A stretch of 64,000 bases of DNA from contig CANHIS010000002.1 in the NCBI GenBank assembly GCA_947460255.1, positions 19,625 through 83,624 on the forward strand. Reading direction: 5' to 3'. The notes beneath the pieces are model-generated. The model searched no databases, had not been told where the DNA came from, and was given only the letters and a program-made list of their open reading frames with translations. The DNA comes from Bacteroidota bacterium (GTDB lineage Bacteria; Bacteroidota; Bacteroidia; M30B66). The translations under genes were made by a program, and so were the position numbers. Numbering within the stretch: the stretch's first letter is position 1; the number at the start of each line of letters is the position of its first letter. Positions 6,811-56,280 of the stretch are shown in pieces.

Positions 6811-9006
6811 ATGCGAAATATACTATCAGCAATCTCATCAGCCATCTTGATATTTGGTTTGTCTAGCTCGATTTCAGCGCAGGTTACCTTCACAGTTCAA
6901 CCAGCTGCAGACCTTGTTCAAAATGTATTGGTTGGCGCAGGTGTTCAGGTTTCAAACATCACGACGCTTGGAGATCCTAATCAGGTAGGTCGTTTTATTG
7001 GCGGTAATTCGGTTGGATTAGGTCTTCCTAACGGTATCGTGATGACCACGGGAAATATTCCAACAATGATGGATGCCGCAGATCCTTTTAATTTTATTGG
7101 TTCACCTGCAAATCCAGGTTCTCTTTCAACATCAGGTTCCAACACGATCAATAGCGTGAATGATCCAGATTTAAATGAAATTCTTCAAAGTTTGGGCGTT
7201 TTGCAAGGTTTCCCCAACCTAACAAACAATGTTTCTGTAATCGAATTTGATTTTATCCCTTCTGGCGACTCCCTCAAATTCAGCTATGTTTTCGGTTCTG
7301 AAGAATACAACTCATACGTGTGCTCTGATTTTTTTGATGCATTCGGTTTCTTCCTTAGCGGGCCTGGTATTAACGGTACTTACACAAACAATGCAATCAA
7401 TCTTGCGCTCGTGCCAGGAACCAACCTACCTGTTGGGATTAATACCATAAACGACGGAATTTCCGACCAAGGTGCTTGTCCTCCAGGCGGTTTAAATAAC
7501 ACACAATTTTATGTAGACAATTCGGCGGCTCAAAATTTTGCAATCGTGGGCACAACAACACCTTTGCTTTGCGAAGCGCAAGTAATTTGTGGAGAAACCT
7601 ACCACATTAAACTTGTAATCGCCAATGGAAGCGACACGTCGTTAGATTCTTGGGTATTTCTAGAATCTGAATCCTTCAGCTCTTCTGTACCTGCTGTGAA
7701 TATCGCGAACTTACTCCCCGATTCGGCTGTAATTGAAGGATGTATCGAAGGCCAATTGGTTTTCAGAAGAAATTTAAGCACCGATACGCTTGTTATTCCG
7801 GTGTTTTACTCTGGCGAAGCTTCAAATGGCGACGATTATCTCGGTTTGCCTGATACTTTAACGTTCCTTCCAGGTGTTGACTCTCTTTATTACGTGCTTC
7901 AACCAGTGGATGATGGAATTGCAGAAGGAACCAATGGTTACGAAAGTCTGATCATCGCTTTTCAAGTAATTAACCAATGCGGCGACACGATTTTTGTTGA
8001 AAGAGAACTTAAAATTCGTGATCCGTATTTGATAAACTTGCAACCATTAAGCGATACTCTTGATTGTCCACAAGCCAATTATACTGTCGGTCTAATTCCT
8101 TCTAACGGTTATGCGCCATACAATTATCAGTGGGCCAACGATGGTCAAATCACCCCAACGATCAATGTCCCAATCACCGAATCACAAACCTTCCCAGTGT
8201 CAGTTACGGACGCATTAAATTGTCCTAATTCACCTTTCTTAGACACTGTGGTTGTAACGTTAAATTACGATACCATCAACAGTGTTTCGCAAAACACGAT
8301 CATTTGTTCTGGCGATACAATCAACATTGAAGCCTTCACTATAGGTGGTTTATTGCCGCACAATATTGCATGGTCGAACGGACAAAACACCGATACAATT
8401 TCCGTTACCGCTACAGACACTACAGTATTCACCTACACTGCAACCGATGCTTGTGGAATTTCTGTGACTGATTCATTTATAGTGAATGTTCCAGTTTTCG
8501 ACACCTTAATCGTTACCACGAACGACACAATTATCTGCAGTAAAGATTCAGAGGCTACGCTAATTCCTTATCCTGAAGGTGGTGCCGGAGGCTTCACTTA
8601 TGTTTGGTCAGGTCCAGCTCCGATTAACGCACTAAATGACTCGATTTCTGTAGCTGGTCCAACGGTAACTTCAACATATTTCATTCAAGTAACCGATCAG
8701 TGCGGTGTAACCGCTTTCGACTCAATGGAAGTCGCCGTACAAAACTGTGATCTAAAAGCCAGCAATGCCTTCTCTCCAAATGGAGATGGAAAGAATGACT
8801 TTTTCACCATACAAAATATTGAGTACTTCCCTGGAAGCATTGTATACCTTTATTCAAGATGGGGCAAAAAAGTATTCGAGCAAACTGATTACAAAAACAA
8901 CTGGTCGGGCGATGATGCACTCATTTCCGGAACTTATTTCTACGTTGTTGAACCTAACGATGGTACCGAACCTCTCAAAGGTTACGTAATGGTGTTTAAA
9001 GAATAA
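6811..9006 (+). CDS. choice-of-anchor L domain protein with T9SS type B (gliding motility-associated, CHU_C) C-terminal sorting domain
   Basis: Signal peptide, then an N-terminal block LVQNVLVGAGVQVSNITTLGDPNQVGRF..GLPNGIVMTTG. The C-terminus NAFSPNGDGKNDFFTIQNIEYFPG...GTYFYVVEPNDG..LKGYVMVFKE is the type B sorting domain signature. Confidence 0.85.
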   Translation: MRNILSAISSAILIFGLSSSISAQVTFTVQPAADLVQNVLVGAGVQVSNITTLGDPNQVGRFIGGNSVGLGLPNGIVMTTGNIPTMMDAADPFNFIGSPANPGSLSTSGSNTINSVNDPDLNEILQSLGVLQGFPNLTNNVSVIEFDFIPSGDSLKFSYVFGSEEYNSYVCSDFFDAFGFFLSGPGINGTYTNNAINLALVPGTNLPVGINTINDGISDQGACPPGGLNNTQFYVDNSAAQNFAIVGTTTPLLCEAQVICGETYHIKLVIANGSDTSLDSWVFLESESFSSSVPAVNIANLLPDSAVIEGCIEGQLVFRRNLSTDTLVIPVFYSGEASNGDDYLGLPDTLTFLPGVDSLYYVLQPVDDGIAEGTNGYESLIIAFQVINQCGDTIFVERELKIRDPYLINLQPLSDTLDCPQANYTVGLIPSNGYAPYNYQWANDGQITPTINVPITESQTFPVSVTDALNCPNSPFLDTVVVTLNYDTINSVSQNTIICSGDTINIEAFTIGGLLPHNIAWSNGQNTDTISVTATDTTVFTYTATDACGISVTDSFIVNVPVFDTLIVTTNDTIICSKDSEATLIPYPEGGAGGFTYVWSGPAPINALNDSISVAGPTVTSTYFIQVTDQCGVTAFDSMEVAVQNCDLKASNAFSPNGDGKNDFFTIQNIEYFPGSIVYLYSRWGKKVFEQTDYKNNWSGDDALISGTYFYVVEPNDGTEPLKGYVMVFKE

Positions 9007-23687: not shown

Positions 23688-24872
23688 ATGGCAAAATTTG
23701 TTACACGTATTTTCGTCGTTGAAGACAATGAATTCTTCGCAACTTTAATCAAGCAAAAGCTTGAAATGAACGATCAGAATGAGGTCACGCTTTTCTTTAA
23801 TGGCGACGATTTCAGAAATCATTTGCACCAAAATCCCGACATCGTGGTGCTCGATTATAACCTTCCAAATAGCAATGGAATCGATCTGCTTAAGGAAATC
23901 AAAAACTACAACCAAGAAATTAAAACTATTGTTGTTTCGGGGCAGGAAAAGGTTGATGTTGTGATCGAAGCCTTCGAATGTGGCGCTGAAGAATACATTA
24001 AAAAAGACGACAATGCCCTGCAACTGCTCGATTTAAAGGTGCAGAAACACAGTGGAAGCGTAAATCTCCGCAAGGAAGTCGATCATTTGAGAGATCAAAT
24101 CATCGACCGACACCGCTACGACCGAATCATTGGCGAAAGTCAAGCATTGTTAAAGGTGCTCCGCCTCATCCAAAAGGTTGAGAAAACCAATATGCTCGCG
24201 CTCATTACGGGCGAAAGTGGAACCGGAAAAGAACTTGTTGCATCAGCCATCCATTACAATTCGGTGCGCAAAAACAAGCCATTTGTAGCTGTAAATGTGG
24301 CTGCAATTCCTGAAGATTTAATGGAATCAGAATTATTTGGTCATGAACGTGGAGCCTTTACCGGAGCCGATAGCAAACGAATCGGAAAGTTCGAAGAAGC
24401 CAACGAAGGCACAATTTTCCTTGATGAAATTGGTGAAATGGACGTGCACATGCAAACCAAATTGTTGCGTGTGTTGCAAGAAAGTAAGATCACCCGTTTG
24501 GGTTCCAACAAAGAAATTGCGCTCAATGTGCGCGTGATTGCAGCAACCAATAAAAACCTGGCACAACGCGTAAAGGATGGAAAAATGCGCGAAGATTTGT
24601 ACTACCGCTTACAAGGATTTTTAATTCATCTTCCACCGCTGCGCGACAGAGAAAACGACTTGTTGATTTTGGCTAGAAACATGCTGCGACAGTTCTGCGA
24701 CGGCAATCGAATCCCTCAGAAATCATTTTCATCAGATTCATTAAAGGCTATGATGAAACATCCATGGAGCGGGAATGTACGCGAATTAAAAGCCTTTGTA
24801 GAACGTGCAGTTTTAATTTCTGATGGCGATGTAATTGAAGAGGAAGATTTGATTTTTTCACAGGATATTTAG
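23688..24872 (+). CDS. sigma-54-dependent response regulator (REC + AAA+ activator domain, no C-terminal HTH)
   Basis: REC domain (VVLDYNLPNSNG), Walker A GESGTGKE, the sigma-54 contact loop GAFTGA, Walker B IFLDEIGE, and the NVRELKAFVERAV end of the AAA+ module. Only 19 residues follow. Confidence 0.9.
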   Translation: MAKFVTRIFVVEDNEFFATLIKQKLEMNDQNEVTLFFNGDDFRNHLHQNPDIVVLDYNLPNSNGIDLLKEIKNYNQEIKTIVVSGQEKVDVVIEAFECGAEEYIKKDDNALQLLDLKVQKHSGSVNLRKEVDHLRDQIIDRHRYDRIIGESQALLKVLRLIQKVEKTNMLALITGESGTGKELVASAIHYNSVRKNKPFVAVNVAAIPEDLMESELFGHERGAFTGADSKRIGKFEEANEGTIFLDEIGEMDVHMQTKLLRVLQESKITRLGSNKEIALNVRVIAATNKNLAQRVKDGKMREDLYYRLQGFLIHLPPLRDRENDLLILARNMLRQFCDGNRIPQKSFSSDSLKAMMKHPWSGNVRELKAFVERAVLISDGDVIEEEDLIFSQDI

Positions 24873-25338: not shown

Positions 25339-25740
25339 TTGGGCATGCGGAATATCCTAGCCACTTTCGGTGGATTGGCTTCGGCCATCTTGGTTTTTAT
25401 TGTTTTCGAGTTGATTGGTTCAACCGTTTATCCAACGCCAGTAGGTTTCGATTACAACGATCCTGCAGCCATGAAAAGTTTTGTTGATACAATGCCTTTG
25501 GGAGCGCTCATGCTCGTACTTGCAGGTTACATCACTGGTTCGTTTGTATGTGGATTTGTGATGGCCAAGTTTGCGCGCAACGAAAAGAAGATTTTGCCAC
25601 TTATTGCAGGTGCGACTCTCACTTTGGCTGGTTTCGCTAACGTAATGAACATCAAGCATTCGCTATGGTTTAGCGTGCTAGTTTTGGTGGTTTTTATCCC
25701 ATTTGTGCTGGTAGGATACAAACTCGTTCGGAAAGCTTAA
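25339..25740 (+). CDS. small integral membrane protein (about 4 predicted TM helices)
   Basis: 133 aa with four hydrophobic stretches (LASAILVFIVFELIG, GALMLVLAGYITGSFVCGFV, ILPLIAGATLTLAGF, LWFSVLVLVVFIPFVLVGY). It starts 20 nt after the XRE gene. Confidence 0.65.
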   Translation: MGMRNILATFGGLASAILVFIVFELIGSTVYPTPVGFDYNDPAAMKSFVDTMPLGALMLVLAGYITGSFVCGFVMAKFARNEKKILPLIAGATLTLAGFANVMNIKHSLWFSVLVLVVFIPFVLVGYKLVRKA

Positions 25741-27123
25741 TTATTTCGTATTCTCCTTCGAAACCCTGCGCATATTGTTCATCTTATCGCGCATTTGCTG
25801 AGCGCTCGATGAAATGGTGTTAGGTGCGATTTCATCCTCTTTTTTGGTGGCTTTCAAATTGTTCATTCGCTGCGCTGAAGAGGCTTGTTCGTTTGCATTT
25901 TGCTGCATCGCTTGTCGGTTTCTTTCTAAGGAAACAGCATCCACTTGAAGCGCTTCTTCATTACGCAAACTGTAAAGTGCAAAGGGATTGTACTGATTGA
26001 AATATTCAGTTGATAGCCAAGTTGCTGAACGCATCTTAGAAGATATTTTCACTTCATCGATAATGCCAGTAAATCCCGAATTTTCGGTAAACTTTTCCTT
26101 CCCAATCAGCATTGGCGACGAGGTTGGTGCTGGCGCATCTTTGGTAAGTAAAATCCTGTCGCTAATCCCATTTACAAAGGTTTGCAATTTTCCTGCGGAC
26201 AAAGAATACACCACAGCTACGTGTTGCCATTTGTCCACATCGAGCTTTTCGGCACCACCAATGTTATCAAGATTTATCGTTTTCCCCGAGGAAGTAACAA
26301 AGGATGCGTTGAGGTTTCCTTGCCTATCCACATAAAGGCTGTAGCCGCCCGGAACATCACCATGATTGCCAATAATTACTTGAGGTCTTCCAACTTGCTC
26401 AAGAAATATCCAAGCAGAAATGGTGTATTCATTTCTCAAGTTTAGATCCTCGTAAAATGGATATTCAGCAAAATCACCATTGTCGTTGTTAAATCTTTTG
26501 CCTCCTGAAATCTTTCCTTCTGCATCAGTCGTTCCCACTTGTGTGGCGCGCAATTTCTTCACACCGTTGCCCGTAAAATCTTTATTTAAGTGCCAAGTAG
26601 ATACAAATTTATCGGTCCACACCAAATTGGCGGGTTCCGATTGCAATGCCGCATTCGAATAATATAGCATCATTTCTGGGGCTTTTCCGCTGATAAGCGA
26701 ATCGGCAAGAACCCAGATATTGCATTCTCCAGTGGTTGGATTGTACGATTCGATGGAGGAGGGGAGAAGCGAAATGCCATCTTTTTTGGTGATACGAATG
26801 TCGAATCCTCGTTTGTGCGCCACTTTTCCACCCGATGAAATGTGTTTCAGGTCTTTGTCTTTAAAACTCAACAGCAACGGAAAATTGAGCAGCAGCTCGT
26901 TTCCTCGATTGATTGACCCATTAAATTCAATTGGTTTTCTGTAGCCAAAACCTGGCAATTGTGTTTCGCGACCCGCAATGCTATCAGTTGATCGCCCTAA
27001 ATTGTAATACAAGAAAAAGCCTGTGGCCACCAAAACAGCAAACGCCGCACCCACAGTAATTAACCGCATGGATGTGCGAACGGTAACTTTGTTTTTAGGC
27101 TTTAATTGTAACCTTGGTTTCAT
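25741..27123 (-). CDS. cassette 1 large protein L1: N-terminal basic/TM segment + DUF2341 + LamG (Laminin_G_3), lacking the Ig-like domain and T9SS sorting domain
   Basis: DUF2341-like block YRKPIEFNGS...FPLLLSFKDKDLKHISSGGKV...GFDIRITKKDGISLLPSSIESYNPTTGECNIWV...MMLYYSN. LamG block YTISAWIFLE...WQHVAVVYSLSAGKLQTFVNG...FTGIIDEVKISSKMRSATWLSTEYFNQ. It ends in a Q/N/M/K-rich tail. Confidence 0.85.
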   Translation of the reverse strand: MKPRLQLKPKNKVTVRTSMRLITVGAAFAVLVATGFFLYYNLGRSTDSIAGRETQLPGFGYRKPIEFNGSINRGNELLLNFPLLLSFKDKDLKHISSGGKVAHKRGFDIRITKKDGISLLPSSIESYNPTTGECNIWVLADSLISGKAPEMMLYYSNAALQSEPANLVWTDKFVSTWHLNKDFTGNGVKKLRATQVGTTDAEGKISGGKRFNNDNGDFAEYPFYEDLNLRNEYTISAWIFLEQVGRPQVIIGNHGDVPGGYSLYVDRQGNLNASFVTSSGKTINLDNIGGAEKLDVDKWQHVAVVYSLSAGKLQTFVNGISDRILLTKDAPAPTSSPMLIGKEKFTENSGFTGIIDEVKISSKMRSATWLSTEYFNQYNPFALYSLRNEEALQVDAVSLERNRQAMQQNANEQASSAQRMNNLKATKKEDEIAPNTISSSAQQMRDKMNNMRRVSKENTK

Positions 27124-27169
27124 AGGCTTAATTCATCTTTACGGTATTTTCAAATCAAGGTTCTAATCA

Positions 27170-27227
27170 CGAAACCTTTTCGCTGGCTAGACTTGCAGCG
27201 TCGGTAACCAGTAGCGAAAAGGTTTCG
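27170..27227 (-). other. 15-bp perfect stem-loop in the S1-L1 intergenic spacer
   Basis: CGAAACCTTTTCGCT (27170-27184) pairs with AGCGAAAAGGTTTCG (27213-27227) around a 28-nt loop. No U-run follows on the minus strand. Confidence 0.5.
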
Positions 27228-27239
27228 ATTAGAAGATTT

Positions 27240-27737
27240 TTACTTTTCTGTTTCAACCAATGCGCTGTTCGATGGATTGGATGTATTCACAACATCTGTT
27301 CTAACACGAACCACGTCCGAATAGGTATAGGTTTGGTCTGTTCCCACCGACATTAATCGGTAGTAATTCACACCGCTAATCGGTTCTTCATCAATAAAAG
27401 AGTAGAACAGATTTACACAAAGTGGCGAACCAACCCGGTCTTTAAAACCAAGTGCCTGAAAGTCGACACCATCTGCCGAACGCTCAACAATGAAAATCCC
27501 GTCCTTTTCGTCGTTCGATGCCAGCCAACGGATGTATGTTTTTCCTTGGTTGAAAACCGGCGAGAAGGATGAAATTGCATTATAAGGATCCTGCTGAAGT
27601 GATGCTGAACCTGTTAGGCCAGCGCCCATTTTTTGTGTTTGTGCATGAACGTTGCCGCCCGTAAGAAATGCTACAGCTATCATAAAGATACCTGCAAATG
27701 TGTTTTTGAAGTTAGAATTTTGACGCTGCGTTTTCAT
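27240..27737 (-). CDS. cassette 1 small protein S1: signal peptide + single Ig/FN3-like domain
   Basis: 165 aa with a signal peptide ending VHAQ. Core FSPVFNQGKTYIRWLASNDEKDGIFIVERSADGVDFQALGFKDRVG...NYYRLMSVGTDQTYTYSDVVRV. I hand-counted 63/90 identities to S2 over this core. Confidence 0.85.
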   Translation of the reverse strand: MKTQRQNSNFKNTFAGIFMIAVAFLTGGNVHAQTQKMGAGLTGSASLQQDPYNAISSFSPVFNQGKTYIRWLASNDEKDGIFIVERSADGVDFQALGFKDRVGSPLCVNLFYSFIDEEPISGVNYYRLMSVGTDQTYTYSDVVRVRTDVVNTSNPSNSALVETEK

Positions 27738-27767
27738 AAGAATGAGTTGTATCAGTTGTGTAATTCA

Positions 27768-27835
27768 GTTACGTAAAGCTAGGCTGGTGGTTCGCTGCGC
27801 GCTGTCCGCATACGCACGAACGATTACTTGTGTAA
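27768..27835 (-). promoter_or_regulatory. conserved promoter-like block with upstream palindrome, cassette 1
   Basis: Minus strand reads TTACACAAGTAA (27835-27824), 30 nt, GAACC (27793-27789), 7 nt, TAGCTTTA (27781-27774), CGTAAC (27773-27768), 30 nt, ATG. The same layout occurs upstream of S2 and S3. Confidence 0.4.
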
Positions 27836-28023
27836 GAATTCTGATGGATGTGAAACTCTTCAAGTTTTAATCATTTTGAAATCCGTGTAAATACTCATGA
27901 AATCGATTTTACGGTTGTTGCTTTCTTGAATCAAGTCTTGTAAGAATTATCGTTGCCACGATTTATACAATCGGGATTCTGCCAAACCAATGCAATCGCT
28001 TCTTCAATAGGTGTTTTTCTCAA

Positions 28024-28052
28024 CAAAAAAACCCTGCAACTGGGCAGGGTCT
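28024..28052 (-). terminator. rho-independent terminator after L2
   Basis: ACCCTGC / GCAGGGT stem (28031-28050). On the minus strand it is followed by a 7-nt U-run (plus-strand A-run 28024-28030). Confidence 0.65.
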
Positions 28053-28076
28053 TTCAAAGTTAAGGTTGGTTTTAGG

Positions 28077-29840
28077 TTATAGTCGTTTGATCAGTTTTAC
28101 CTGACGCTTGTCGTCTTCTTGAGCAACCTGGAAGAAATAAACTCCTGGTTTCAATTGGTTTTCATCTTTGAATTTGAAGTGCTGTTCTTTTTGTTTTTCG
28201 CAAGCCACTTCTTCCTCATGCATCACTTCGCCTTTTAGGTTTAGGATTTTCACTTTCGCCATGCCTTCTTTCGGCACCATGTAGCTTACTTCAAATTCTT
28301 TCACGAATGGATTTGGTGATGCGGTGTTGATCTTCACGCTCAATTCCGATTCTTCTTCCACGTTCACCGGAGTCATCATCGAATATTCTTCGGCTCCTGT
28401 GCTGCTGGTAAGTTTTACGCGGTAGTAGTTCGTACCGATCGCTGGTTTCGAATCTCTGAACTGGTAGCTCAACACCGCGTCGGAGTTTCCCGCGCCAGGC
28501 TTTGTTCCAATGGATTCGAAATTCACGCCATCGTTCGAGCGTTCTACCGTGAACAAATCATTTTCCACTTCATTTACAGTTAACCACTTGAGCTCGACGG
28601 TTTTTCCTTGAACTTCTGCGTCGAACGTGAGCAAGCTCATCGAAATCTGCTGAACAATAGATTCGGTTTTGCCGATAGTCATGAATTGTTGAGGCGTTGC
28701 TTGGTTTGCATATTCTGTCGCAAACCAGCTTGAACTTCGTGCTACGTTTGCAACGTGAACTTCATCCAACAAACCTCCGAAGTAGTAAATCTTGCGGTTC
28801 GGCTCTCTTCCAATTTGAAGCGGATCTGAACTGCCAGCCAAACTGATGTCGGTTTTCATTCCACGGTCGTACTTTCCGTTGATGTAAGTCGCCATCGAAT
28901 CGCCTGAATCTGAGTATACTGCTGATACAAAGTACCATTTGCCTTTTTCGATTTCCAAGCCAGTTTCTTCACCTTTGATGGTTGCTGGAACAGAATTTTC
29001 GTTGCGCACTTCGAATTCAATCTTGCGGTCTTTGCTGATCGATAAACGATATCCACCATTAAAGCCACTTTGGTTCGAAAGGATGGTTTGTTCTTTTTTG
29101 TCGTCTAAACGCACCCATGCAGAAACCGATAATTCTCCTGTAATGTCAACATCTTCAGGTGTATTCAAACAAGGAAATTGTGAAGAATTTTTCTCTGCTG
29201 CCACATACACATCTTTGTCGTCTTTCGGTTTTTGAACTTCAGCAACTTGTGTAGCCCAAGGCGTTTTTGTGCTGAGGTTTCCACGGAGATGCCATACACC
29301 TTTGTAGGTTTTGTTCCATGCATTCTGACTGCTTTCATTGGCCGCATAACGGTTGTTGAAGTACAGAAACATGGGTGCAGTGTTTTTGTAGAGCGAATCG
29401 ATTTTCACCCAAGCAACGAGATTTCCTTTGGCTGGATCGTATTGCTCAATTTCATAGTCGAGTAATGTAATTCCATCGCCTTTCGTGAAACGGAAATCGT
29501 TTCCTTGCTCGCTGAGCACTTTTCCGCCGTGCGAAACCGATTTCAAATCTGGATCTGAAACCGTTACCATGATCGGAAATTTGGCCAATGTTTCCTTTTC
29601 GGGGATCATTGTTGGGTTGATTGAAATCTGCTTTCTGAATTTGTATTCAGCCAGTGTTTCGATACCGTTGTAACGGTTGTTTGCTCTTGATTCGGTAGAA
29701 GTTCCGAGCATATTGTACAGCACAGCTACTGAGAAAACACCAATGGCGAATGCTCCTGCAACGGCTACATATCTGAGTTTGTTCTGAAGTTTAACCTTGG
29801 TTTTTACTTTCGGAACGAGACGGGTAGAACTTTTTTTCAT
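28077..29840 (-). CDS. cassette 2 large protein L2: N-terminal basic/TM segment + DUF2341 + LamG + Ig/FN3-like domain + T9SS type A C-terminal sorting domain
   Basis: DUF2341-like YKFRKQISINP...FPIMVTVSDPDL...GNDFRFTKGDGITLLDYEIEQYDPAKGNLVAWVKIDSL...MFLYFNN. LamG ELSVSAWVRLDD...GKWYFVSAVYSDSGDSMATYINGK...FGGLLDEVHVANVARSSSWFATEYANQ. Ig-like VELKWLTVNEVENDLFTVERSNDGVNFESIG...NYYRVKL. CTD SPNPFVKEFEVSY...LKPGVYFFQV...VKLIKRL. Confidence 0.9.
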   Translation of the reverse strand: MKKSSTRLVPKVKTKVKLQNKLRYVAVAGAFAIGVFSVAVLYNMLGTSTESRANNRYNGIETLAEYKFRKQISINPTMIPEKETLAKFPIMVTVSDPDLKSVSHGGKVLSEQGNDFRFTKGDGITLLDYEIEQYDPAKGNLVAWVKIDSLYKNTAPMFLYFNNRYAANESSQNAWNKTYKGVWHLRGNLSTKTPWATQVAEVQKPKDDKDVYVAAEKNSSQFPCLNTPEDVDITGELSVSAWVRLDDKKEQTILSNQSGFNGGYRLSISKDRKIEFEVRNENSVPATIKGEETGLEIEKGKWYFVSAVYSDSGDSMATYINGKYDRGMKTDISLAGSSDPLQIGREPNRKIYYFGGLLDEVHVANVARSSSWFATEYANQATPQQFMTIGKTESIVQQISMSLLTFDAEVQGKTVELKWLTVNEVENDLFTVERSNDGVNFESIGTKPGAGNSDAVLSYQFRDSKPAIGTNYYRVKLTSSTGAEEYSMMTPVNVEEESELSVKINTASPNPFVKEFEVSYMVPKEGMAKVKILNLKGEVMHEEEVACEKQKEQHFKFKDENQLKPGVYFFQVAQEDDKRQVKLIKRL

Positions 29841-29869
29841 GGGATTGGTCTTTGATCGGATCCTTGCAA

Positions 29870-30355
29870 TTACTTCTTGTCTTGTGTGGCTTCAGGTGCC
29901 GATGCTGCTGATCCGCCTTGAAGCGAACTGCCTGTGTTTTTAACTTTTACTACCGAACTGTATCGGTATGTATTGTCGGCACCAACCTGCATAATTCGGT
30001 ACATATTGTCGCCAGGAAGAGGCTCCTCATCAACAAAAGAATAGAACAGGTTTACCAACAATTGTGTTCCTACACGGTCTTTGAAACCTAATGCTTCGAA
30101 ATCAACGCCATCGGCCGAACGTTCAACTACGAAAACGCCGTCTTTCTTGTCGTTCTTTACCAACCAGCGCACATATGTTTTTCCTTCCATGTAAACTGGA
30201 GAAAATGAAATGAACGTGTTGGCTGTGTCTTGTTTCAATCCGGCTTTTCCAACCATCGCAGAAGCGTTATTGGATGTTTGTGCATTTGCCGCCACAGAAA
30301 ATAGCAGGCAAAGTGCCGAGATGAAAAATGTTTTGGATGTAAATACGCGCTTCAT
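29870..30355 (-). CDS. cassette 2 small protein S2: signal peptide + single Ig/FN3-like domain
   Basis: 161 aa with a signal peptide ending ANAQ. Core FSPVYMEGKTYVRWLVKNDKKDGVFVVERSADGVDFEALGFKDRVG...MYRIMQVGADNTYRYSSVVKV. Confidence 0.85.
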   Translation of the reverse strand: MKRVFTSKTFFISALCLLFSVAANAQTSNNASAMVGKAGLKQDTANTFISFSPVYMEGKTYVRWLVKNDKKDGVFVVERSADGVDFEALGFKDRVGTQLLVNLFYSFVDEEPLPGDNMYRIMQVGADNTYRYSSVVKVKNTGSSLQGGSAASAPEATQDKK

Positions 30356-30384
30356 ATTGAGGTGTGTTAAGGTTCTTGATTGTT

Positions 30385-30453
30385 GTTACGTCAAAAGTAT
30401 TTGTGCGGTTTGTCTGCTTTTGTTTTGCTTTTTCTGATGAATTACAGATGTAA
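30385..30453 (-). promoter_or_regulatory. conserved promoter-like block with upstream palindrome, cassette 2
   Basis: Minus strand reads TTACATCTGTAA (30453-30442), 30 nt, AAACC (30411-30407), 7 nt, TACTTTTG (30399-30392, a perfect TAnnTTTG), A, CGTAAC (30390-30385), 29 nt, ATG. Confidence 0.45.
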
Positions 30454-30594
30454 GTTTTTGGTTTTTTGGTTGAACTTCTGAAAATCGATTTCGCTACGTA
30501 AATGGTCGATACAGACGTTTTATTTTCTTTTTTTGATGTTGATTGATTTGTAAGTTTTTGTGTTTTCGCTGAAAGTTGTACCGATTTTTAACCG

Positions 30595-32361
30595 TTACAG
30601 TCGTTTGATGAGTTTCACTGTTTTTTGCTCCTCATCTTGTGTTAGGCTGAGGAAGTAAATTCCAGGCAACAATTTCTCGCTGTCTTTGAACTGAAACACG
30701 TTTTCGATACCCATTTCTGGCTTTAACGATTCTCTGTAAACCACTTTCCCGCTAATGCTGGTAAGCTTCACTTCCATGTTGGCTTCGCTTTGACTGCCGT
30801 AGCTCACCGAGAAATTCTGCGAAAATGGATTCGGCTCTACCTTATTAATATTTAGTGCAGTTGGAGGTGCATCGTAACGAACACTTACCACGTTCGATAC
30901 TGCGCTTTCCTTGCGAAAACTTGTGTATCTCAATCTGTAATAAGCATTTCCGTAAACTGGTGCTGGATCCTGAATCATATAGTTCTTTGGATGATCCGAA
31001 TTCCCGTTTCCAAATTTGCTAGCTACTTTGTTAAAGGTTTGGCCATCCGACGAACGCTCTAATGTGAAATAATCCAAATTCGATTCATACGATGTGGTCC
31101 AATTAACAGCCACATGCGAACCATTTACTACGGCTTCGAATTTATCGATCGATGCCAAGGTTGGAGAAGCGCTAAACACTTCCTCACCGTCCATCGAAAT
31201 TAGCTGCTCAGGTTCACTTTCGATATTCCATGAGTTCTTGATTTGGTCGGCCGATAAACTGATTCCCGACACCCGAAGCTCATCCAACAAGCCATTGAAA
31301 AATCCTGATTTCACATCCGCATCAGAGCCTAAAACTACCCAGCTTCCTTTGCCGTAATACGTTCCAACCACTGCACTTCGATCAGCTTCACCGTTAACAT
31401 AGGTAGTGATCGATTTTGTTGCCGACGAGTATGTTGCTGCTACTTGATACCATTGGTCTTTTTCTAAAATGATTCCACCTGTTGCAGCTGCATTTGAGGC
31501 TATTTTTCCATTCGAACCAATAACATCAAAGGTGAGTTTCTGGTTTTTGTCGAGATACAGTTTGCTGCCTCCTGTGGTTGATTGGTTGCAGAATATGGTT
31601 TGGTGGTTTTCACTTCCGCGGCTGCGGATCCAAGCCGAAACAGTGATGTCCTTATCAAATAACATCGATGTGCCCGGTTCAAAAACTGCCGATCCTTTTT
31701 CAACCGCTAGGAAATCTTTAGCGCCTGCGAATCTTCCCTCATCATCCTTGATGCCTTTGTATTCGCCCGAAACAGGCGTTGTTCCTTGAACATTAAAGTT
31801 GCCATTAAAATTCCAAATGGCCGCAAAAGCAGTTTTGGGCTCTTCGCGTTTTACCAGTGCAGCTGTCTTGTTGCCATAGTACATGTAAAAACACTGATCA
31901 GTCGATTTTACTGAACTGTTCGGATACACCCAAGCCAATAACTTTCCAATACTTGGGTCGAATCGCTCAATACTAAATGGAAGCATTGTTTCGCCATCTG
32001 CTGCTGTGATAAAAATATCGTTCCCTTCGCGATCGGTTATTTTTCCACCATGATCGGTTAAGCGTAAATCGTCGTGGCGAACGGAAACTAGCATCGGACA
32101 AACACTGTCGATTCCAGATGTTAAGTTTTGTCGATTAATGGAGATTTTACTTCTCCCTGCAAATCCATCGAGGATTTTGCGACCGGGCGTGGTTTCTTCG
32201 ATGGCCTTTTGGGCGCGTGCCGAAGTTACTTTTCCGATAAATGTGTATAGAAACCACACACCCGAAAGCAATGCCGTGATTGTTAATGCTCCTGCTGCCA
32301 ATTGCAATCTTTGGCGCGTGCGGTTCGAAATACGGTTTCTTAAACGTAGACGTTTGCTCAT
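30595..32361 (-). CDS. cassette 3 large protein L3: N-terminal basic/TM segment + DUF2341 + LamG + Ig/FN3-like domain + T9SS type A C-terminal sorting domain
   Basis: 588 aa with the same architecture as L2. Blocks: SKISINRQNL...CPMLVSVRHDDLRLTDHGGKI..GNDIFITAADGETMLPFSIERFDPSIGKLLAWV; ITVSAWIRS...DQWYQVAATYSSATKSITTYVNGE...FNGLLDELRVSGISLSADQIKNSWN; VAVNWTTSYESNLDYFTLERSSDGQTFNKV...AYYRLRY; CTD EPNPFSQNFSVSY...LLPGIYFLSL...VKLIKRL. Confidence 0.9.
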   Translation of the reverse strand: MSKRLRLRNRISNRTRQRLQLAAGALTITALLSGVWFLYTFIGKVTSARAQKAIEETTPGRKILDGFAGRSKISINRQNLTSGIDSVCPMLVSVRHDDLRLTDHGGKITDREGNDIFITAADGETMLPFSIERFDPSIGKLLAWVYPNSSVKSTDQCFYMYYGNKTAALVKREEPKTAFAAIWNFNGNFNVQGTTPVSGEYKGIKDDEGRFAGAKDFLAVEKGSAVFEPGTSMLFDKDITVSAWIRSRGSENHQTIFCNQSTTGGSKLYLDKNQKLTFDVIGSNGKIASNAAATGGIILEKDQWYQVAATYSSATKSITTYVNGEADRSAVVGTYYGKGSWVVLGSDADVKSGFFNGLLDELRVSGISLSADQIKNSWNIESEPEQLISMDGEEVFSASPTLASIDKFEAVVNGSHVAVNWTTSYESNLDYFTLERSSDGQTFNKVASKFGNGNSDHPKNYMIQDPAPVYGNAYYRLRYTSFRKESAVSNVVSVRYDAPPTALNINKVEPNPFSQNFSVSYGSQSEANMEVKLTSISGKVVYRESLKPEMGIENVFQFKDSEKLLPGIYFLSLTQDEEQKTVKLIKRL

Positions 32362-32397
32362 AAGCGGTTTGGAAGATGTGATGATTGAAAAACCGGC

Positions 32398-32901
32398 TTA
32401 TTTGCCTTTTTCCTGTCCACTTGCGCTACCGCCAGTGGTTTGTGCTGCAGCCGTTTTAACACGCACTACATCTGAGTAATTGAAAGTGTGGTCGTTGCCT
32501 ACTTGCATGATCCGATAATGCGCCATTCCTGCAGGTGGATTTTCATCTACCCACGAATAAAATAGCTTCACACTTTTATCGGTGCCTACTCGGTCTTTAA
32601 ATGCAAGTGCTTCAAATGCATCACCATCGTCAGATCGCTCAACAATAAAAACTCCGTCTTTCTTGTCGTTCTCCACTAACCAACGCAGATAGGTTTTCCC
32701 TTCTACATAAACAGGAGAAAAGGAAACGAAATTATCAACCGAATCTTTCGCTAATGGTTTTGCCTCCGAAGGCGCTGCAACTTTTAGCGTTTGCTTAGGC
32801 GTTTGTGCATTCGCAGCACTTGCGCAAAGTAAAAGTCCGCAAACCAATGTGAGCCGGCGAAGTGGTTGATTAAATACATGAATAATGTCGAGGTTTCTCA
32901 T
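32398..32901 (-). CDS. cassette 3 small protein S3: signal peptide + single Ig/FN3-like domain
   Basis: Core FSPVYVEGKTYLRWLVENDKKDGVFIVERSDDGDAFEALAFKDRVG...HYRIMQVGNDHTFNYSDVVRV. The start is chosen at ATG 32901 (MRNLDIIHVFNQPLRRLTLVCGLLLCASAANAQ), because the track start at 32976 would run through the conserved promoter block. Confidence 0.8.
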   Translation of the reverse strand: MRNLDIIHVFNQPLRRLTLVCGLLLCASAANAQTPKQTLKVAAPSEAKPLAKDSVDNFVSFSPVYVEGKTYLRWLVENDKKDGVFIVERSDDGDAFEALAFKDRVGTDKSVKLFYSWVDENPPAGMAHYRIMQVGNDHTFNYSDVVRVKTAAAQTTGGSASGQEKGK

Positions 32902-32923
32902 AACCGTGATCTTTTGTGTGATC

Positions 32924-32992
32924 TCAACGACAAATGTGTGATCGCGGTTGCTGCTGCTTCTGCCGCTTCTGGCCACGGGGTTACATGTGTAA
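32924..32992 (-). promoter_or_regulatory. conserved promoter-like block with upstream palindrome, cassette 3
   Basis: Minus strand reads TTACACATGTAA (32992-32981), 30 nt, CAACC (32950-32946), 7 nt, CACATTTG (32938-32931), T, CGTTGA (32929-32924), 22 nt, ATG 32901. Confidence 0.4.
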
Positions 32993-33177
32993 GAAATCAG
33001 ATCATGGTGATGTGTTGATTCTTCTGAATCGCTACATAATTGGGAGAATTCGATTTAAGTTTTGGCAAAATTTACTTTTGCAGGCTGACAGAAACCTCGA
33101 CTTCTGTCAAAAAAATAACCCCGATTCTGAAGTTCTCCTTCGAAACGGGGTTTGAATCATTTTTATTTATCGTCGGA

Positions 33178-38596: not shown

Positions 38597-39964
38597 ATGA
38601 TAACAAAATACCTTATCGCAGGAGCTGCTTTGCTTACTACTCTCCAAGCAGATGCACAACAAAAAACAAATGTTTTTGAACGTTTTTTGCCAAAAACCAA
38701 ACAATCAACACGCTCGGTAAATACGTTCTTACCAACCACTGAAAAGCAGTTTATTTGGAACACAGAGTTTTCAATTTGGGATTCAGTTCTGATCAGAAAT
38801 TACGTCTATTTTGAGAGTAATCTGGATACTGTGAATATCGGTGATCCAGTTACCAATGAACTCAACTCACGAGAAATCTACACAAGAACTCCACTTGAAG
38901 ATGCTGTAGTTACCCAGTTCTTTATCAATAACTCGTGGGAAAATATGCAGAAGACTGTCACCACCCGCGACAACCAAGGTTTTCAAACAGGTAATCAATA
39001 TTTTATTTGGGAAAATGGTGATTGGACTCTTCAGTTTGGAGATCGCATTTTAACCAATTATGATGGCTCAGGACGCCTCATCAGCGCCCAGTCACAAGGT
39101 TGGGATAGCATGGAGCAAACTTGGCTCACCTATACAGGTACAACTGCAATTTATGAAGGGGATCTTCTTGTGCAATTGAACATCCAAGAACCTTCAGCCG
39201 ACGGTACATTGGAGGATATTCTTTATGCTACTTTGGGTTACCAAAGCGGTTCTACAGAAGCAGATACCGCCACGATTTTCATGATTATGGGTGGCGAATT
39301 TTTGCCTGTAAGTCGCCTTTTGGTTTCGAGATGGATTGATTTTGGGAATCTTATAAATCTTGAACCAGTCTCCTACATTGAGCAAGAATATCTTGATGGA
39401 AACTTTGTAGATGTTTATCGCCAAGTACGTAGCGACCTTGACAATGGTGGTTATCAAGACTTAGGGGAAGATTTCGATGGCGACGATTGGATTTTAGGCT
39501 ATCGCTTCACAATGGTTTATGATGATCAAGAAAATCTTTTAGAGGAAAAATCCGAATCATTTGACCAAACTGAAGTCTTTATCGATTATGCTAATCTTTT
39601 CACCTACACCTACGATCCTAACGGAAACATTTTAGAGCGAGTTCAGCAGTTCTACGATATCAATACCAATGAATATCAATTTAACAACCGCAGTGTTTTT
39701 GGTCCTTATCTCGATGTTACTGGTATCGAATCCACATCCAACGAAAGTTTAGTGCTTTTTCCAAACCCTACCGATGCATTTTTGAATTTGCCTAGCTCGG
39801 CCAGAATCAACGAGGTGAGAATTTTTGATGTCCAAGGTCGTATTGTAAAACAAGAAGTTTCTAACGTAAACCAAATCAATGTATCTGATCTAGATGCCGG
39901 ACTGTACATTCTGCAAGCCAATATGAACAATCGTTTGGTGAGTGCACGATTTATAAAACAATAA
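38597..39964 (+). CDS. T9SS type A sorting domain-containing hypothetical protein
   Basis: Signal peptide MITKYLIAGAALLTTLQADAQ. C-terminus LVLFPNPTDAFLNL...DLDAGLYILQANMNNRLVSARFIKQ. Confidence 0.8.
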   Translation: MITKYLIAGAALLTTLQADAQQKTNVFERFLPKTKQSTRSVNTFLPTTEKQFIWNTEFSIWDSVLIRNYVYFESNLDTVNIGDPVTNELNSREIYTRTPLEDAVVTQFFINNSWENMQKTVTTRDNQGFQTGNQYFIWENGDWTLQFGDRILTNYDGSGRLISAQSQGWDSMEQTWLTYTGTTAIYEGDLLVQLNIQEPSADGTLEDILYATLGYQSGSTEADTATIFMIMGGEFLPVSRLLVSRWIDFGNLINLEPVSYIEQEYLDGNFVDVYRQVRSDLDNGGYQDLGEDFDGDDWILGYRFTMVYDDQENLLEEKSESFDQTEVFIDYANLFTYTYDPNGNILERVQQFYDINTNEYQFNNRSVFGPYLDVTGIESTSNESLVLFPNPTDAFLNLPSSARINEVRIFDVQGRIVKQEVSNVNQINVSDLDAGLYILQANMNNRLVSARFIKQ

Positions 39965-43111: not shown

Positions 43112-43905
43112 ACCAAACTTTGCATGTTACCATCGTTCAATCGCGCATCGCTTGGCAAGATGTGCAGCAAAACCTCGATTGGTTCGAAGCAAAAATGGAG
43201 AGCATTTCTGGCGCAACAGATATCATTGTGCTTCCAGAAATGTTCACTACTGGTTTCAGCATGGAGAATGAAAAATTGGCAGAAGAGTCTGGTGGGAAAT
43301 CCACGCAATGGATGCACCGGATGGCCTCAAAATACAATGCCGTGGTGGTGGGCTCGATTATAGTGAAAGACAAAGCCAAGTTTTACAACCGTTTGGTTTG
43401 GATGCACCCTTCCGGGGAAGCCGAGTTCTACGACAAGCGCCATCTTTTTCGCATGGCAAACGAGCATAACAATTACACGGAAGGCACATCAAGGCTGGTT
43501 TTCTATTACAAAGGCTGGAAGATTTGTCCGCTGATTTGTTACGACCTTCGTTTTCCAGTGTGGTCGAGAAACCGTCTGATCAACAACCAACATGATTACG
43601 ACTGTTTACTCTACGTTGCCAATTGGCCAGAGAAAAGATCTCATGCTTGGAAGTCACTTTTGGTAGCGCGGGCAATTGAAAATCAGGCATATGTGATTGG
43701 AGTGAATCGAATTGGTAATGATGGCAACGGTATCATCTATTCGGGCGATTCGGTTGTTTTAAATTATATGGGTGAAAAAATATCGAAAACCGAAAGATTC
43801 GGCGACCGTGTTGAAACAATTACCATGACCAAAAAAGACCTCGAGGATTTCAGGCTGCAATTTCCCGCAGGACTGGATGCCGACAATTTTACAGTACATT
43901 TATAA
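43108..43905 (+). CDS. yafV: omega-amidase, carbon-nitrogen hydrolase family (YafV)
   Basis: Close by eye to E. coli YafV as I recall it: PEMFTTGF, FYDKRHLFRMANEH, CYDLRFPVWSRN, YVANWPEKRSHAWKSLLVARAIENQAYV. Confidence 0.9.
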   Translation: MNQTLHVTIVQSRIAWQDVQQNLDWFEAKMESISGATDIIVLPEMFTTGFSMENEKLAEESGGKSTQWMHRMASKYNAVVVGSIIVKDKAKFYNRLVWMHPSGEAEFYDKRHLFRMANEHNNYTEGTSRLVFYYKGWKICPLICYDLRFPVWSRNRLINNQHDYDCLLYVANWPEKRSHAWKSLLVARAIENQAYVIGVNRIGNDGNGIIYSGDSVVLNYMGEKISKTERFGDRVETITMTKKDLEDFRLQFPAGLDADNFTVHL

Positions 43906-43909
43906 AGAC

Positions 43910-45307
43910 ATGAAAATTAGCCTATTCCTATCCTTATTCTTTTCAATTTGTTCCTCTTTCGCGCAAGTAACCTTTCGGGTGATCAGTCTTCCAGCGAACA
44001 GCCCTGCCAATGCGCCCATCTTTGTGGCTGGAAGTTTCAACAATTGGAATCCTGCTTCAACTGCGCATCAGTTGGTTGATTTAATTGATGGAGATCCTGC
44101 TATCACGCTCAATATCTCCGGAAGCATCACTTGCAAATTCACACGCGGGTCTTGGGAAACAGTGGAAGGCAATGCCACAGGAAGCTTTCTTCCCGATAGG
44201 CAATTCAATGTTTCTCCAAATGATACTGTGTTGATTGGAATCCAATCTTGGGAAGATCTTGGTGGTTCAACTGGCAATGGAACAGCTTTACCTTCAGTGT
44301 CGTTGCTATCAGCTTCATTCAGTATGCCTGAGTTAAACCGTTCGCGCAGAATTTGGGTTTGTTTGCCTGAAGATTATACCACCGCAACCGAGAAACGTTA
44401 CCGCGTGTTGTACATGCAAGACGGACAGAATCTCTTCAACAACAGCTTAGCTTTTGCTGGCGAATGGGAAGTAGATGAATCGATGCGTGATTTGTTCCTT
44501 GCAGGGGATAAAGGAGCCATCGTAATCGGCATCGACAATGGTGGTGCAGAACGTTTGAATGAATATTCACCTTGGGAAAATCCAAGTTATGGTGGAGGCG
44601 ATGGTGATGCTTATGTAGATTTCATGCGCAATACCTTGAAGCCTTACGTAGACGCAAACTACAGAACGCTCACAGAGCCAGAGAATACAGGCGTTGCAGG
44701 TTCATCCATGGGTGGATTGATTTCGATGTATGCAGCGATGCGATATCCCGATACATATGGAAAAGCTGGGATTTTTTCACCGGCCTTTTGGTTCGCAGAA
44801 TCGGCAATGCACACTTGGATGAACGGTTTGATTTTACCTTCTAGTTTACGTGTGTATTTCGTGGCTGGAACAACAGAAAGTTCTAGCATGATTACAGATA
44901 TCAATCAAATGCGGAATTTGTTGTCGTATGCAGGTGTTTCCGATTCGAATTTGCGGGTAGTACCGCAAGCAGATGGAGCACACAGTGAATGGTTTTGGAA
45001 CCGAGAATTTCCTGAGGCTTACACTTGGTTGTGGGATGATTTGAGCACTTCAATTTCTGCGGAGGCATCAAATCCAGCTGTGAAATTATATCCGAACCCT
45101 GTAGAATCTGCAGTTTCTGTTTGTCGCGAAACAAATGAAGCTGCCAGTTTTGGGATCAGAAATTTAACTGGTCAACTCTTGAACAGTGGATGGCTTCAGC
45201 AAACCTGTGATCAAATCTCCGTTTCTGGATTCAGTGCTGGAGTGTACATCATGGAAGTGCGAGAAAATAACGGATCAGTGAGCAGGAATCGATTTGTAGT
45301 GAAGTAA
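43910..45307 (+). CDS. esterase family (PF00756-like) protein with an N-terminal carbohydrate-binding-like module and T9SS type A sorting domain
   Basis: Signal peptide MKISLFLSLFFSICSSFAQ, an N-terminal beta module (VAGSFNNWNP), an esterase block RVLYMQDGQNLF...GSSMGGLIS, and a C-terminus VKLYPNPVES...SAGVYIMEV...RFVVK. Confidence 0.8.
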   Translation: MKISLFLSLFFSICSSFAQVTFRVISLPANSPANAPIFVAGSFNNWNPASTAHQLVDLIDGDPAITLNISGSITCKFTRGSWETVEGNATGSFLPDRQFNVSPNDTVLIGIQSWEDLGGSTGNGTALPSVSLLSASFSMPELNRSRRIWVCLPEDYTTATEKRYRVLYMQDGQNLFNNSLAFAGEWEVDESMRDLFLAGDKGAIVIGIDNGGAERLNEYSPWENPSYGGGDGDAYVDFMRNTLKPYVDANYRTLTEPENTGVAGSSMGGLISMYAAMRYPDTYGKAGIFSPAFWFAESAMHTWMNGLILPSSLRVYFVAGTTESSSMITDINQMRNLLSYAGVSDSNLRVVPQADGAHSEWFWNREFPEAYTWLWDDLSTSISAEASNPAVKLYPNPVESAVSVCRETNEAASFGIRNLTGQLLNSGWLQQTCDQISVSGFSAGVYIMEVRENNGSVSRNRFVVK

Positions 45308-55233: not shown

Positions 55234-56280
55234 ATGCGCAATAAAAAATTGAAATATATTTCATTCTTCACGCTATTGATTGCGTTAATTGTCGCCATTT
55301 TTGCGATTAATCAAAATCAACGTGATTTTTCAATTTCATTCTACCATTGGAAATCCGAATTTTCACCTTCGAACCATGATTTGAAATTACTGCAGGAGTG
55401 TCAAGTTAATCAACTTTATCTGCATGTTTTTGATGTCGACAAAGCTCCGGGAACTCAATCGCCAATTCCTAAAGCTAAACTTAAATTTCAAAGTAATTTC
55501 CCTCCGGGGATAGCTGTCATTCCTACTGTATTCATCACTCAGCGCACCTTCGAAGATGCAGGTAGTGTGAATATTTCTGATTTGGCCAAGAATATCGTAC
55601 AACTTTCTCGACAAATTACTGATGCTCAAAAGCTCGTTTGGAAGGGCTTTCAGATAGATTGCGATTGGACAGGAGGTTCAAAACTAACCTATTTCTCATT
55701 TTTGGAAGTCTTGAAAAAAGAATTAGGAAATGAAATTCCATTGTCGGTTACCATTCGTCTACATCAGATCAAATACCCAGAAAAAACAGGAGTTCCACCT
55801 TGCGATCGAGGTGTTTTGATGTTTTACAATATGGGGGATTTTAAAAAATATTCAAAGAGTAATTCTATTTTCGATGCCAGTGTAGCAAATCTCTATTTAG
55901 ATCGATTACGCGAATATCCAGTGAAATTAGATTATGCTTTGCCTGCCTTTTCTTGGGCAATTTTTTACAAGTATGGAAAAGTAGAAAAATTGCTTTCCGA
56001 TCAACAAATTCCTGGTCTGCTCAATTCTGGAAGTTTTATCCAAAAAGAGGATCAGTTAATTTGCCAAAACAATTTACTGCTCGATGGAATCTACTTCCAA
56101 AGAGGCGATATTGTGAAGATAGAATCGGTTTCACCTGCATTGTGTAAAATTGCAGCCGATCAAATTGCGCCTCATGTAAATTCTAGCGATTTTCAAGTAA
56201 TTTTTTACCACATTAGCTCCTCCGAAATTCAAAATTATGCACCCGCTGATTTCAAAGATATCCTTCATTCTTTTCGTTAG
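55234..56280 (+). CDS. hypothetical membrane-anchored protein (single N-terminal TM)
   Basis: MRNKKLKYISFFTLLIALIVAIFAI followed by about 320 aa with alternating beta/alpha-like segments. I recognise no family. The track starts at GTG 55207. Confidence 0.6.
   Translation: MRNKKLKYISFFTLLIALIVAIFAINQNQRDFSISFYHWKSEFSPSNHDLKLLQECQVNQLYLHVFDVDKAPGTQSPIPKAKLKFQSNFPPGIAVIPTVFITQRTFEDAGSVNISDLAKNIVQLSRQITDAQKLVWKGFQIDCDWTGGSKLTYFSFLEVLKKELGNEIPLSVTIRLHQIKYPEKTGVPPCDRGVLMFYNMGDFKKYSKSNSIFDASVANLYLDRLREYPVKLDYALPAFSWAIFYKYGKVEKLLSDQQIPGLLNSGSFIQKEDQLICQNNLLLDGIYFQRGDIVKIESVSPALCKIAADQIAPHVNSSDFQVIFYHISSSEIQNYAPADFKDILHSFR

Follow-up and report, generated by a model that had tools for sequence, protein, structure and literature searches.

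On the minus strand of a 64-kb stretch of DNA from a Bacteroidota bacterium (contig CANHIS010000002.1; the whole stretch is hereafter called the window) lie three consecutive pairs of genes, in each of which a gene for a small protein with a signal peptide (S) is followed by a gene for a large protein (L) that carries a DUF2341 domain and a LamG domain (Table 1). The six open reading frames (ORFs) have the coordinates given in a preliminary description of this DNA, and the S-to-L gaps (36 nt in cassette 3, 29 nt in cassette 2 and 116 nt in cassette 1) and the inter-cassette spacers (239 and 339 nt) agree with it too. S3 has an alternative, longer ORF with a GTG start that extends to 32976; the ATG at 32901 is probably the true start, because the distance from S3 to a palindrome upstream of it (80 nt) then matches the distance found for S2 and S1 (87 nt).

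The array is shared with other genomes. When one genome per species was scanned for the S family, over 185,579 species, members were found at 30 loci from about 25 species-level metagenome-assembled genomes (MAGs), which carry the labels Flavobacteriales, Bacteroidia or Bacteroidetes bacterium; lakes, Lake Mendota and Swiss lakes among them, are the source of many. The order S-L (about 590 aa)-S-L (about 587 aa)-S-L (about 460 aa) is kept in every locus whose contig is of sufficient length, and the six genes make up six monophyletic ortholog groups across the sampled species. Because these groups hold their order in about 25 other genomes, the array is not a product of chance; because each of the six genes forms a group of its own, the triplication predates the sampled radiation and is as old as had been suspected. 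In nearly all loci the spacers between S and L in cassettes 3 and 2 measure 0-50 nt, and in one (L024) the called ORFs overlap by 29 nt; the spacers between L and the following S are mostly 115-450 nt long. Median identity to the proteins of the window is 68-71% for S, 65% for L2, 47% for L3 and 40% for L1. In 13 of the 30 loci the array is preceded by a ParE-like topoisomerase gene, and what lies downstream differs from locus to locus; the array is chromosomal and vertically inherited.

Wherever the sequence downstream of an S-family gene is readable, the next gene is an L gene, and no close S-family gene was found away from an L gene in the species genomes scanned. The preliminary description held that every copy has kept both partners; this is true of all three pairs in the window, but one clade has L3 without S3, and another genome (L017) has two cassettes only. 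Across the Bacteroidota the pairing of S and L is not general: neighbourhood surveys find it in one uncultured lineage only. In L017 (4865-8787) the two-cassette array comes after ORFs that, by eye, resemble an O-antigen ligase and, of the Wzx and Wzz types, a flippase and a chain-length regulator; this may point to a link with surface polysaccharide. As to the history of the paralogues, a tree-congruence test of whole-cassette duplication gave a branching order of the S tree with a best bootstrap of 41/100, L1 and L2 cluster in 97 of 100 bootstraps, and in a mirror-tree test of cognate co-evolution with the nine species that have all six genes only S2-L2 stands out.

Table 1. Genes, protein domains and control sites of the array, in the order of transcription (positions within the window; aa, residues of the L2 protein)
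Feature	Positions	Strand	Description or basis
Terminator-like hairpin and T run after ParE-like gene	33107-33152	minus	Separates the ParE-like gene from the array
Operator-like palindrome CTTACACATGTAA (TTACA-N2-TGTAA)	32981-32993	minus	Exact match; 80 nt before S3 ATG
S3	32398-32901	minus	167 aa; signal peptide and one FN3-like X domain
L3	30595-32361	minus	Long basic/hydrophobic N-terminus, DUF2341, LamG, X domain, type A T9SS sorting domain
Operator-like palindrome CTTACATCTGTAA	30442-30454	minus	87 nt before S2 ATG
-7-like promoter box TACTTTTG	30392-30399	minus	Bacteroidota TAnnTTTG type; 36 nt before S2 ATG
S2	29870-30355	minus	161 aa; signal peptide, candidate D-T-A sequon, X domain, Ser/Ala-rich tail with terminal KK
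L2	28077-29840	minus	587 aa; helix, DUF2341, LamG, X domain, sorting domain
L2 helix	aa 19-45		Structure model
L2 DUF2341 sandwich	aa 68-183 = 29292-29639	minus	HMM and structure model
L2 LamG jelly roll	aa 212-395 = 28656-29207	minus	HMM and structure model, pLDDT about 90
L2 X domain	aa 402-494 = 28359-28637	minus	S homology and structure model
L2 sorting domain	aa 503-585 = 28086-28334	minus	HMM and structure model
Intrinsic terminator after L2: GACCCTGC-CCAGTT-GCAGGGT then T7	28024-28052	minus	Not in the list of a simple consensus scan
Operator-like palindrome CTTACACAAGTAA	27824-27836	minus	One mismatch; 87 nt before S1 ATG
S1	27240-27737	minus	165 aa; signal peptide and one X domain
Stable hairpin in S1-L1 spacer	27170-27227	minus	About 22 bp; whole spacer folds at -37 kcal/mol
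L1	25741-27123	minus	460 aa; basic/hydrophobic N-terminus, DUF2341, LamG, conserved polar tail of about 70 aa

Control sites of the cassettes

The palindrome is found upstream of the S genes only and not of the L genes. In alignments of the spacers from about 20 species, CTTACA-N2-TGTAA forms one conserved block upstream of every S gene, which is located about 80-95 nt before the S start in most orthologous loci, those of S3 orthologues included, and TTACATCTGTAA is found again upstream of S2 in most of these loci. With up to one mismatch allowed, the 64 kb contain the three sites before the S genes and only one other site; counted as strand-matches, there are six in the window against 0.94 expected, a number reached in 0 of 100 shuffles. 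About 45 nt downstream of the palindrome is the -7-like box, which appears in the alignment of 21 spacers as the conserved block 'ATAc.TTTGaCGTA'. The simplest reading of this arrangement is that the array consists of three separately promoted S-to-L operons with one regulator bound upstream of the promoter, and because the same 12-bp palindrome precedes each promoter, one regulator probably switches all three operons. A sigma-54 promoter upstream of S1 was also considered and was rejected because, by eye, its spacing does not fit. A relaxed form of the palindrome (TTAC-N4-GTAA) occurs inside the L2 coding sequence of many species, about 298 nt before the stop codon (L013 11978, L014 3161, L010 6478), and is absent from the L2 gene of the window; a conserved T-P-V peptide probably accounts for it.

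The terminator proposed to follow L2 was confirmed as a hairpin followed by seven T residues; a simple consensus scan does not list it. The hairpin in the S1-L1 spacer (27124-27239) is present in most orthologous loci, where its sequence differs and T runs follow it in some cases, and it may be a partial terminator or attenuator that lowers the expression of L1 relative to that of S1. Comparison of the spacers with Rfam gave no family matches.

S proteins and the X domain

The S proteins match no family in Pfam or NCBIfam, and no structure in the PDB is related to them in sequence. The earlier assignment of a signal peptide and one Ig/FN3-like domain is nevertheless borne out by a confident AlphaFold2 model of S2, made with 20 homologues, in which residues 45-142 form an eight-strand sandwich (pLDDT about 90), and by the best Foldseek matches of this model, which are FN3 domains (E about 4e-4 to 1e-3; target-normalised TM-scores up to 0.6). 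The signal peptides finish in A-x-A followed by Gln, 43 columns of the family alignment are invariant, and no export signal other than Sec was found in Pfam and NCBIfam scans. Identities between the S paralogues are 59% (S1/S2), 54% (S2/S3) and 46% (S1/S3), and those between the L paralogues 33% (L2/L3), 33% (L1/L2) and 29% (L1/L3), so that the S proteins are indeed closer to one another than the L proteins are (46-59% vs 29-33%); in the 90-residue core of S1 and S2, for which 63 identities had been counted by hand, 64 were computed.

The Ig-like domain that had been noticed between the LamG domain and the sorting domain of L2 and L3 is present, but its homology to the core of S had been missed, and this homology changes how the pair is read. 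Of the three S proteins, S1 is the nearest to this domain of L2, here called X, with 45% identity over 66 residues (E = 1e-14), and S2 shares 38% with it over 84 residues. When the S-family profile was compared with 1.84 billion representative proteins, 22,992 clusters matched at E <= 1e-3. The matches include giant proteins with up to 10 tandem copies of X, diverse type IX secretion system (T9SS) cargo proteins, GDSL lipases for example, in which X stands immediately before the Por_Secre_tail sorting domain, and many stand-alone proteins of about 150 aa that consist of a signal peptide and one X domain. Because so many clusters were matched and yet no member, close or distant, has a match in Pfam or NCBIfam, the domain is both common and uncatalogued. 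To judge from these sequences, X is a stalk-like module that is very common in T9SS cargo, and S represents a free-standing copy of this module.

The abundance of stand-alone X proteins bears on the possibility that S and L have independent functions, their genes having been copied twice as a block and held together by operon inertia, with S as a generic periplasmic X protein. Six distant stand-alone S-like genes have no DUF2341-LamG gene adjacent to them; of the contigs surveyed for this, two are too short, and no such neighbour was seen in the four longer ones or in the one with two uncharacterised cut genes; and among 62 metagenome loci with other DUF2341/LamG relatives, a stand-alone S-like gene is found in none. 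The persistence of L3 without S3 in one clade, and the fact that the S paralogues have not diverged in step with the L paralogues, also agree with independence. Against it, the three pairs keep their genes, order and short spacers, though L1 and L3 have diverged to 24-50% identity, the shared operator stands before S and not before L, and close S-family genes do not occur apart from L. That all three pairs have long been retained, with short spacers and with the operator before S only, and that S is confined to the neighbourhood of L, argues for a functional link between the two proteins, and we therefore consider independence rather unlikely, while giving it appreciable weight. The broader proposal that S-like genes accompany T9SS cargo of any kind was dropped: three of the six loci fit it (within about 1.5 kb), cargo genes are dense, and such proximity is possibly due to chance, because 7 of about 55 genes in the window are themselves T9SS-tailed.

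Two further features of the S proteins lie outside the X domain. The last residue is Lys in 104 of 118 S proteins (88%), where it follows a flexible tail, about 20 residues long and rich in Ser, Ala and Pro, of which Lys otherwise makes up 3.6%; in most of the remaining proteins a Lys stands two or three positions from the C-terminus, and among the distant stand-alone relatives terminal Lys is found in 32 of 109. This terminus recalls Braun's lipoprotein, the terminal Lys of which is linked to peptidoglycan, or else a protection from tail-specific proteases. About eight residues before the sandwich, the motif D-[ST]-[AILVMT] is present in 75 of 77 proteins of the S2 and S3 types and in 0 of 34 of the S1 type; in the former it is a candidate O-glycosylation sequon of the Bacteroidota kind.

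L proteins and their predicted export

Profile scans of the six proteins bear out the presence of DUF2341 and LamG domains in L1 to L3, all scores being above the Pfam cut-offs: for DUF2341 (PF10102; cut-off 23.4 bits) L3, L2 and L1 score 28.2, 29.5 and 26.4 bits, and for Laminin_G_3 (PF13385; cut-off 27.6 bits) 88.4, 81.0 and 80.0 bits, respectively. The model of L2 (mean pLDDT 80) resolves five parts, and the nearest solved folds of its head are lectin-like, namely the Hc-N domain of clostridial neurotoxin, the lectin domain of NanB sialidase and pentraxin; none of the fold matches is specifically an enzyme. These modelled folds are consistent with the lectin- or adhesin-like character first suggested for the L head.

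The title of the preliminary description spoke of T9SS cargo for every cassette. For L2 and L3 this assignment is supported by TIGR04183 (Por_Secre_tail; 32.4 and 39.8 bits, cut-off 23) and, in the case of L3, by PF18962 (32.9 bits, cut-off 27), and both proteins end in KLIKRL, as described before; L1 gave no T9SS sorting-domain match in the Pfam or TIGR04183 scans, so that the candidates for T9SS cargo among the L proteins are L2 and L3 only. L1 has in place of X and the sorting domain a polar tail of about 70 residues, the length and terminal motif of which are kept across species. The tail-less L1 is relevant to the idea that S is exported as a passenger: paired in the periplasm with the X stalk of L2 or L3, it would pass through the T9SS and become a surface subunit. 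S and X are both sandwiches and are homologous, and pairing is frequent among domains of this sort; S has no export signal beyond Sec, and the T9SS carries folded cargo. But L1, without X or a sorting domain, still keeps S1, which is the S protein most like the X domain of L2, and the T9SS is not known to export proteins in piggy-back fashion. Co-export is thus an improbable fate for S.

The organism probably uses the T9SS, because T9SS tails are encoded by at least five further genes of the window (6811-9006, 38597-39964, 43877-45307, 52090-54432 and 61529-63583). One of these has a tail of the CHU_C type and four have Por_Secre_tail, and an esterase and a DUF7619/DUF11 protein are among their products; the X domain was found in none of the five at E < 1e-5. 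Together with L2 and L3, T9SS-tailed genes thus number seven of about 55 in the window, and core T9SS genes were not found in its 64 kb.

Outside the lineage, the DUF2341-LamG head is found at 25-30% identity in many bacteria and archaea. In the literature, DUF2341 appears as an N-terminal appendage of ExbB-like subunits, in archaeal pilus loci, where a role as an adhesin has been proposed, and in giant proteins of Patescibacteria, and no function is assigned to it. The preliminary description had linked the domain mainly to ExbB, which is too narrow, since type IV pilus-associated proteins and archaea carry it as well. At one locus (L036) the head is fused to a PilX-like minor pilin, the gene for which belongs to a cluster of pilin genes and directly follows a small pilin gene. 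DUF2341 and LamG appear to travel as one repeatable module, because giant proteins of two metagenome loci (L044 and L045) carry three tandem DUF2341-LamG units. The full architecture of L2 and L3 was met in a Bacteroidota protein (P0344) whose contig ends 32 nt upstream; a metagenome scan with this protein returned mixed LamG proteins and no close relative.

These fusions make it appear that other DUF2341 proteins operate with a motor of the ExbB/TolQ type or with a type IV pilus, and the same is conceivable for L; one L2 orthologue bears the JGI annotation ExbB. Genes for MotA/ExbB/TolQ or N_methyl pilins, however, are not linked to the array in the flanks of the window or in the 30 orthologous loci (nor are genes of the T9SS machinery), the L N-termini contain no prepilin motif of the G-F-x-x-x-E type and have no N_methyl or PilX_N matches in Pfam, and the sorting domain indicates the T9SS instead. 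An association with a motor or pilus is therefore very improbable.

Some neighbouring features remain to be listed. Two-component genes, among them a sigma-54-type response regulator, GerE-type regulators and histidine kinases, recur beside the arrays and beside distant S-like genes (window 23688-24872; L035, L038-L041, L104 and L105); such genes are common and their adjacency may be due to chance. The sigma-54 activator of the window has no HTH_8 DNA-binding domain at E <= 1e-4. An ORF of 133 aa (25339-25740) converges on L1 and abuts its stop codon with zero spacer; its product looks hydrophobic by eye, has no Pfam match and is conserved in the closest relatives only. Another ORF, of 779 aa (56237-58576), has no Pfam match at E <= 1e-5. 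A role in anti-phage defence and a phage origin were considered and rejected: PADLOC gives no match, and PHROGs gives weak, generic LamG matches only.

Proposed role of the S-L pair

We propose, with even confidence, that the array comprises three co-regulated S-to-L operons in which the L proteins are lectin-like proteins of the envelope or surface, and S is a dedicated envelope partner of the L protein with which it is co-transcribed. Each operon would be transcribed into a single RNA from which S and then the lectin-like L are made, and L would be exported by Sec. L2 and L3, in which the DUF2341-LamG head is carried on the FN3-like X stalk, would subsequently cross the outer membrane by means of the T9SS and be displayed on the surface or released from it, probably as adhesins that bind glycans or other ligands. 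L1, which has neither the stalk nor the sorting domain, would be retained in the cell envelope. S would remain in the periplasm as a small single-domain protein, a paralogue of the L stalk domain, and would act on L there, possibly by holding, capping or docking it before its export or retention.

Several observations sit uneasily with this proposal. That S and L touch at all is something we infer, and no DUF2341-LamG protein is known to bind a ligand. The sorting domain of L2 scores 26.3 bits with PF18962, just under the cut-off of 27, although the TIGRFAM model passes. Four MAGs of one clade (L006-L009) hold L3 without any remnant of S3, and because this clade keeps L3 in that state, S is not strictly required beside every L. 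The much greater likeness among the S paralogues than among the L paralogues fits a common target better than three private partners, and it suggests that S may recognise something common to all three L proteins. Finally, the N-terminus of L is atypically long, with about 20 basic residues followed by about 20 hydrophobic residues that are strongly conserved within the ortholog groups, and this segment may be an uncleaved membrane anchor, which would be at odds with simple release by the T9SS.

The last point leads to an alternative in which the uncleaved helix anchors L in the inner membrane and the terminal Lys joins S to peptidoglycan, the two proteins forming a scaffold or sensor that spans the envelope. 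The conservation of the basic stretch and of the hydrophobic helix far beyond that of ordinary signal peptides, the modelling of the segment in L2 as a 27-residue helix, the bias of the S terminus towards Lys, as in Braun's lipoprotein, and the recurrence of two-component genes beside arrays and S-like genes are all in keeping with it. L2 and L3, however, have clear T9SS sorting domains, a small-x-Ala site of the cleavage type is conserved 7-11 residues past the hydrophobic segment (in L3 the +1 residue is often Gln), Bacteroidota are not known to have a peptidoglycan-linked protein of such a kind, and two-component genes are so abundant that finding them nearby may be due to chance. A scaffold of this type is accordingly given only a small chance, and partnership between S and exported or retained L proteins remains the interpretation that we prefer.

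Comparison with known systems places the parts of the array in familiar company. Like other type A T9SS cargo, such as the lectin RemA of F. johnsoniae, L2 and L3 have Por_Secre_tail after a beta-sandwich and a lectin-like head, and many other members of this class also have X before the tail; the DUF2341-LamG head, in contrast, has no studied T9SS example, and L differs further in its long conserved N-terminus, in the small paralogue of its stalk that is encoded upstream, and in the tail-less L1. The nearest precedent for one partner per T9SS cargo is provided by the PorP/SprF-like proteins, for example SprF with SprB, where, as proposed for S and L, a cargo gene, in this case of type B, and a dedicated accessory gene share one operon. 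SprF-type proteins, however, are outer-membrane barrels of about 300 aa that serve type B tails, whereas S is a soluble FN3-like protein of 160 aa, encoded upstream of type A cargo. No S-like partner of the T9SS is described in the literature, which links only one chaperone, a general Skp homologue, to the translocon, and the gene pair is, as first stated, undescribed.

Other relatives resemble one member of the pair only. The pilus-associated DUF2341-LamG proteins (MshQ-, PilX- and PilY-like, and archaeal) share the head of L at the 25-30% identity given above, and in L036 a small gene directly precedes the large one, as S precedes L; those proteins have pilin-type N-termini and pilin neighbours, whereas the array has no pilin genes, its S proteins are FN3-like and predicted to be exported by Sec, and delivery would be by the T9SS. 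The A subunits of ExbB/TolQ-like 'generic ion transporters' share an N-terminal DUF2341 with L, which has neither a fusion nor a linkage to MotA/ExbB/TolQ genes in any locus. For S, a possible analogy is offered by the PapD family of chaperone-usher systems, members of which are likewise small periplasmic Ig-like proteins encoded with the surface protein that they serve; PapD has two Ig domains and a Pfam family, whereas S has a single domain and matches neither PapD nor any solved structure in sequence.

By their tails L2 and L3 belong to the class of T9SS type A cargo as ordinary members, and by their heads to the DUF2341 and LamG families. What is new is the conserved pairing with a free-standing paralogue of the stalk, the triplicated and apparently co-regulated array, the tail-less L1, and X as a large uncatalogued family. 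The array itself is limited to a single uncultured lineage from freshwater and is in no respect at odds with current understanding. DUF2341 itself is widespread and is attached to varied delivery devices (ExbB-like motors, type IV pili and, here, probably the T9SS), and a compact, conserved and co-regulated locus offers a defined system in which to test what its head binds. X is a common beta-sandwich before T9SS sorting domains and occurs also in thousands of small stand-alone proteins. On a bolder view, which we hold to be a long shot, the S-type proteins represent a new class of partners dedicated to T9SS cargo, each a copy of the stalk domain tethered in the periplasm, possibly by a covalent link of its conserved terminal Lys to peptidoglycan, that docks or gates the cargo ahead of its export, with stand-alone X proteins acting alike. 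If S is a true cargo-specific partner, it would be a new kind of accessory factor in the biology of the T9SS.

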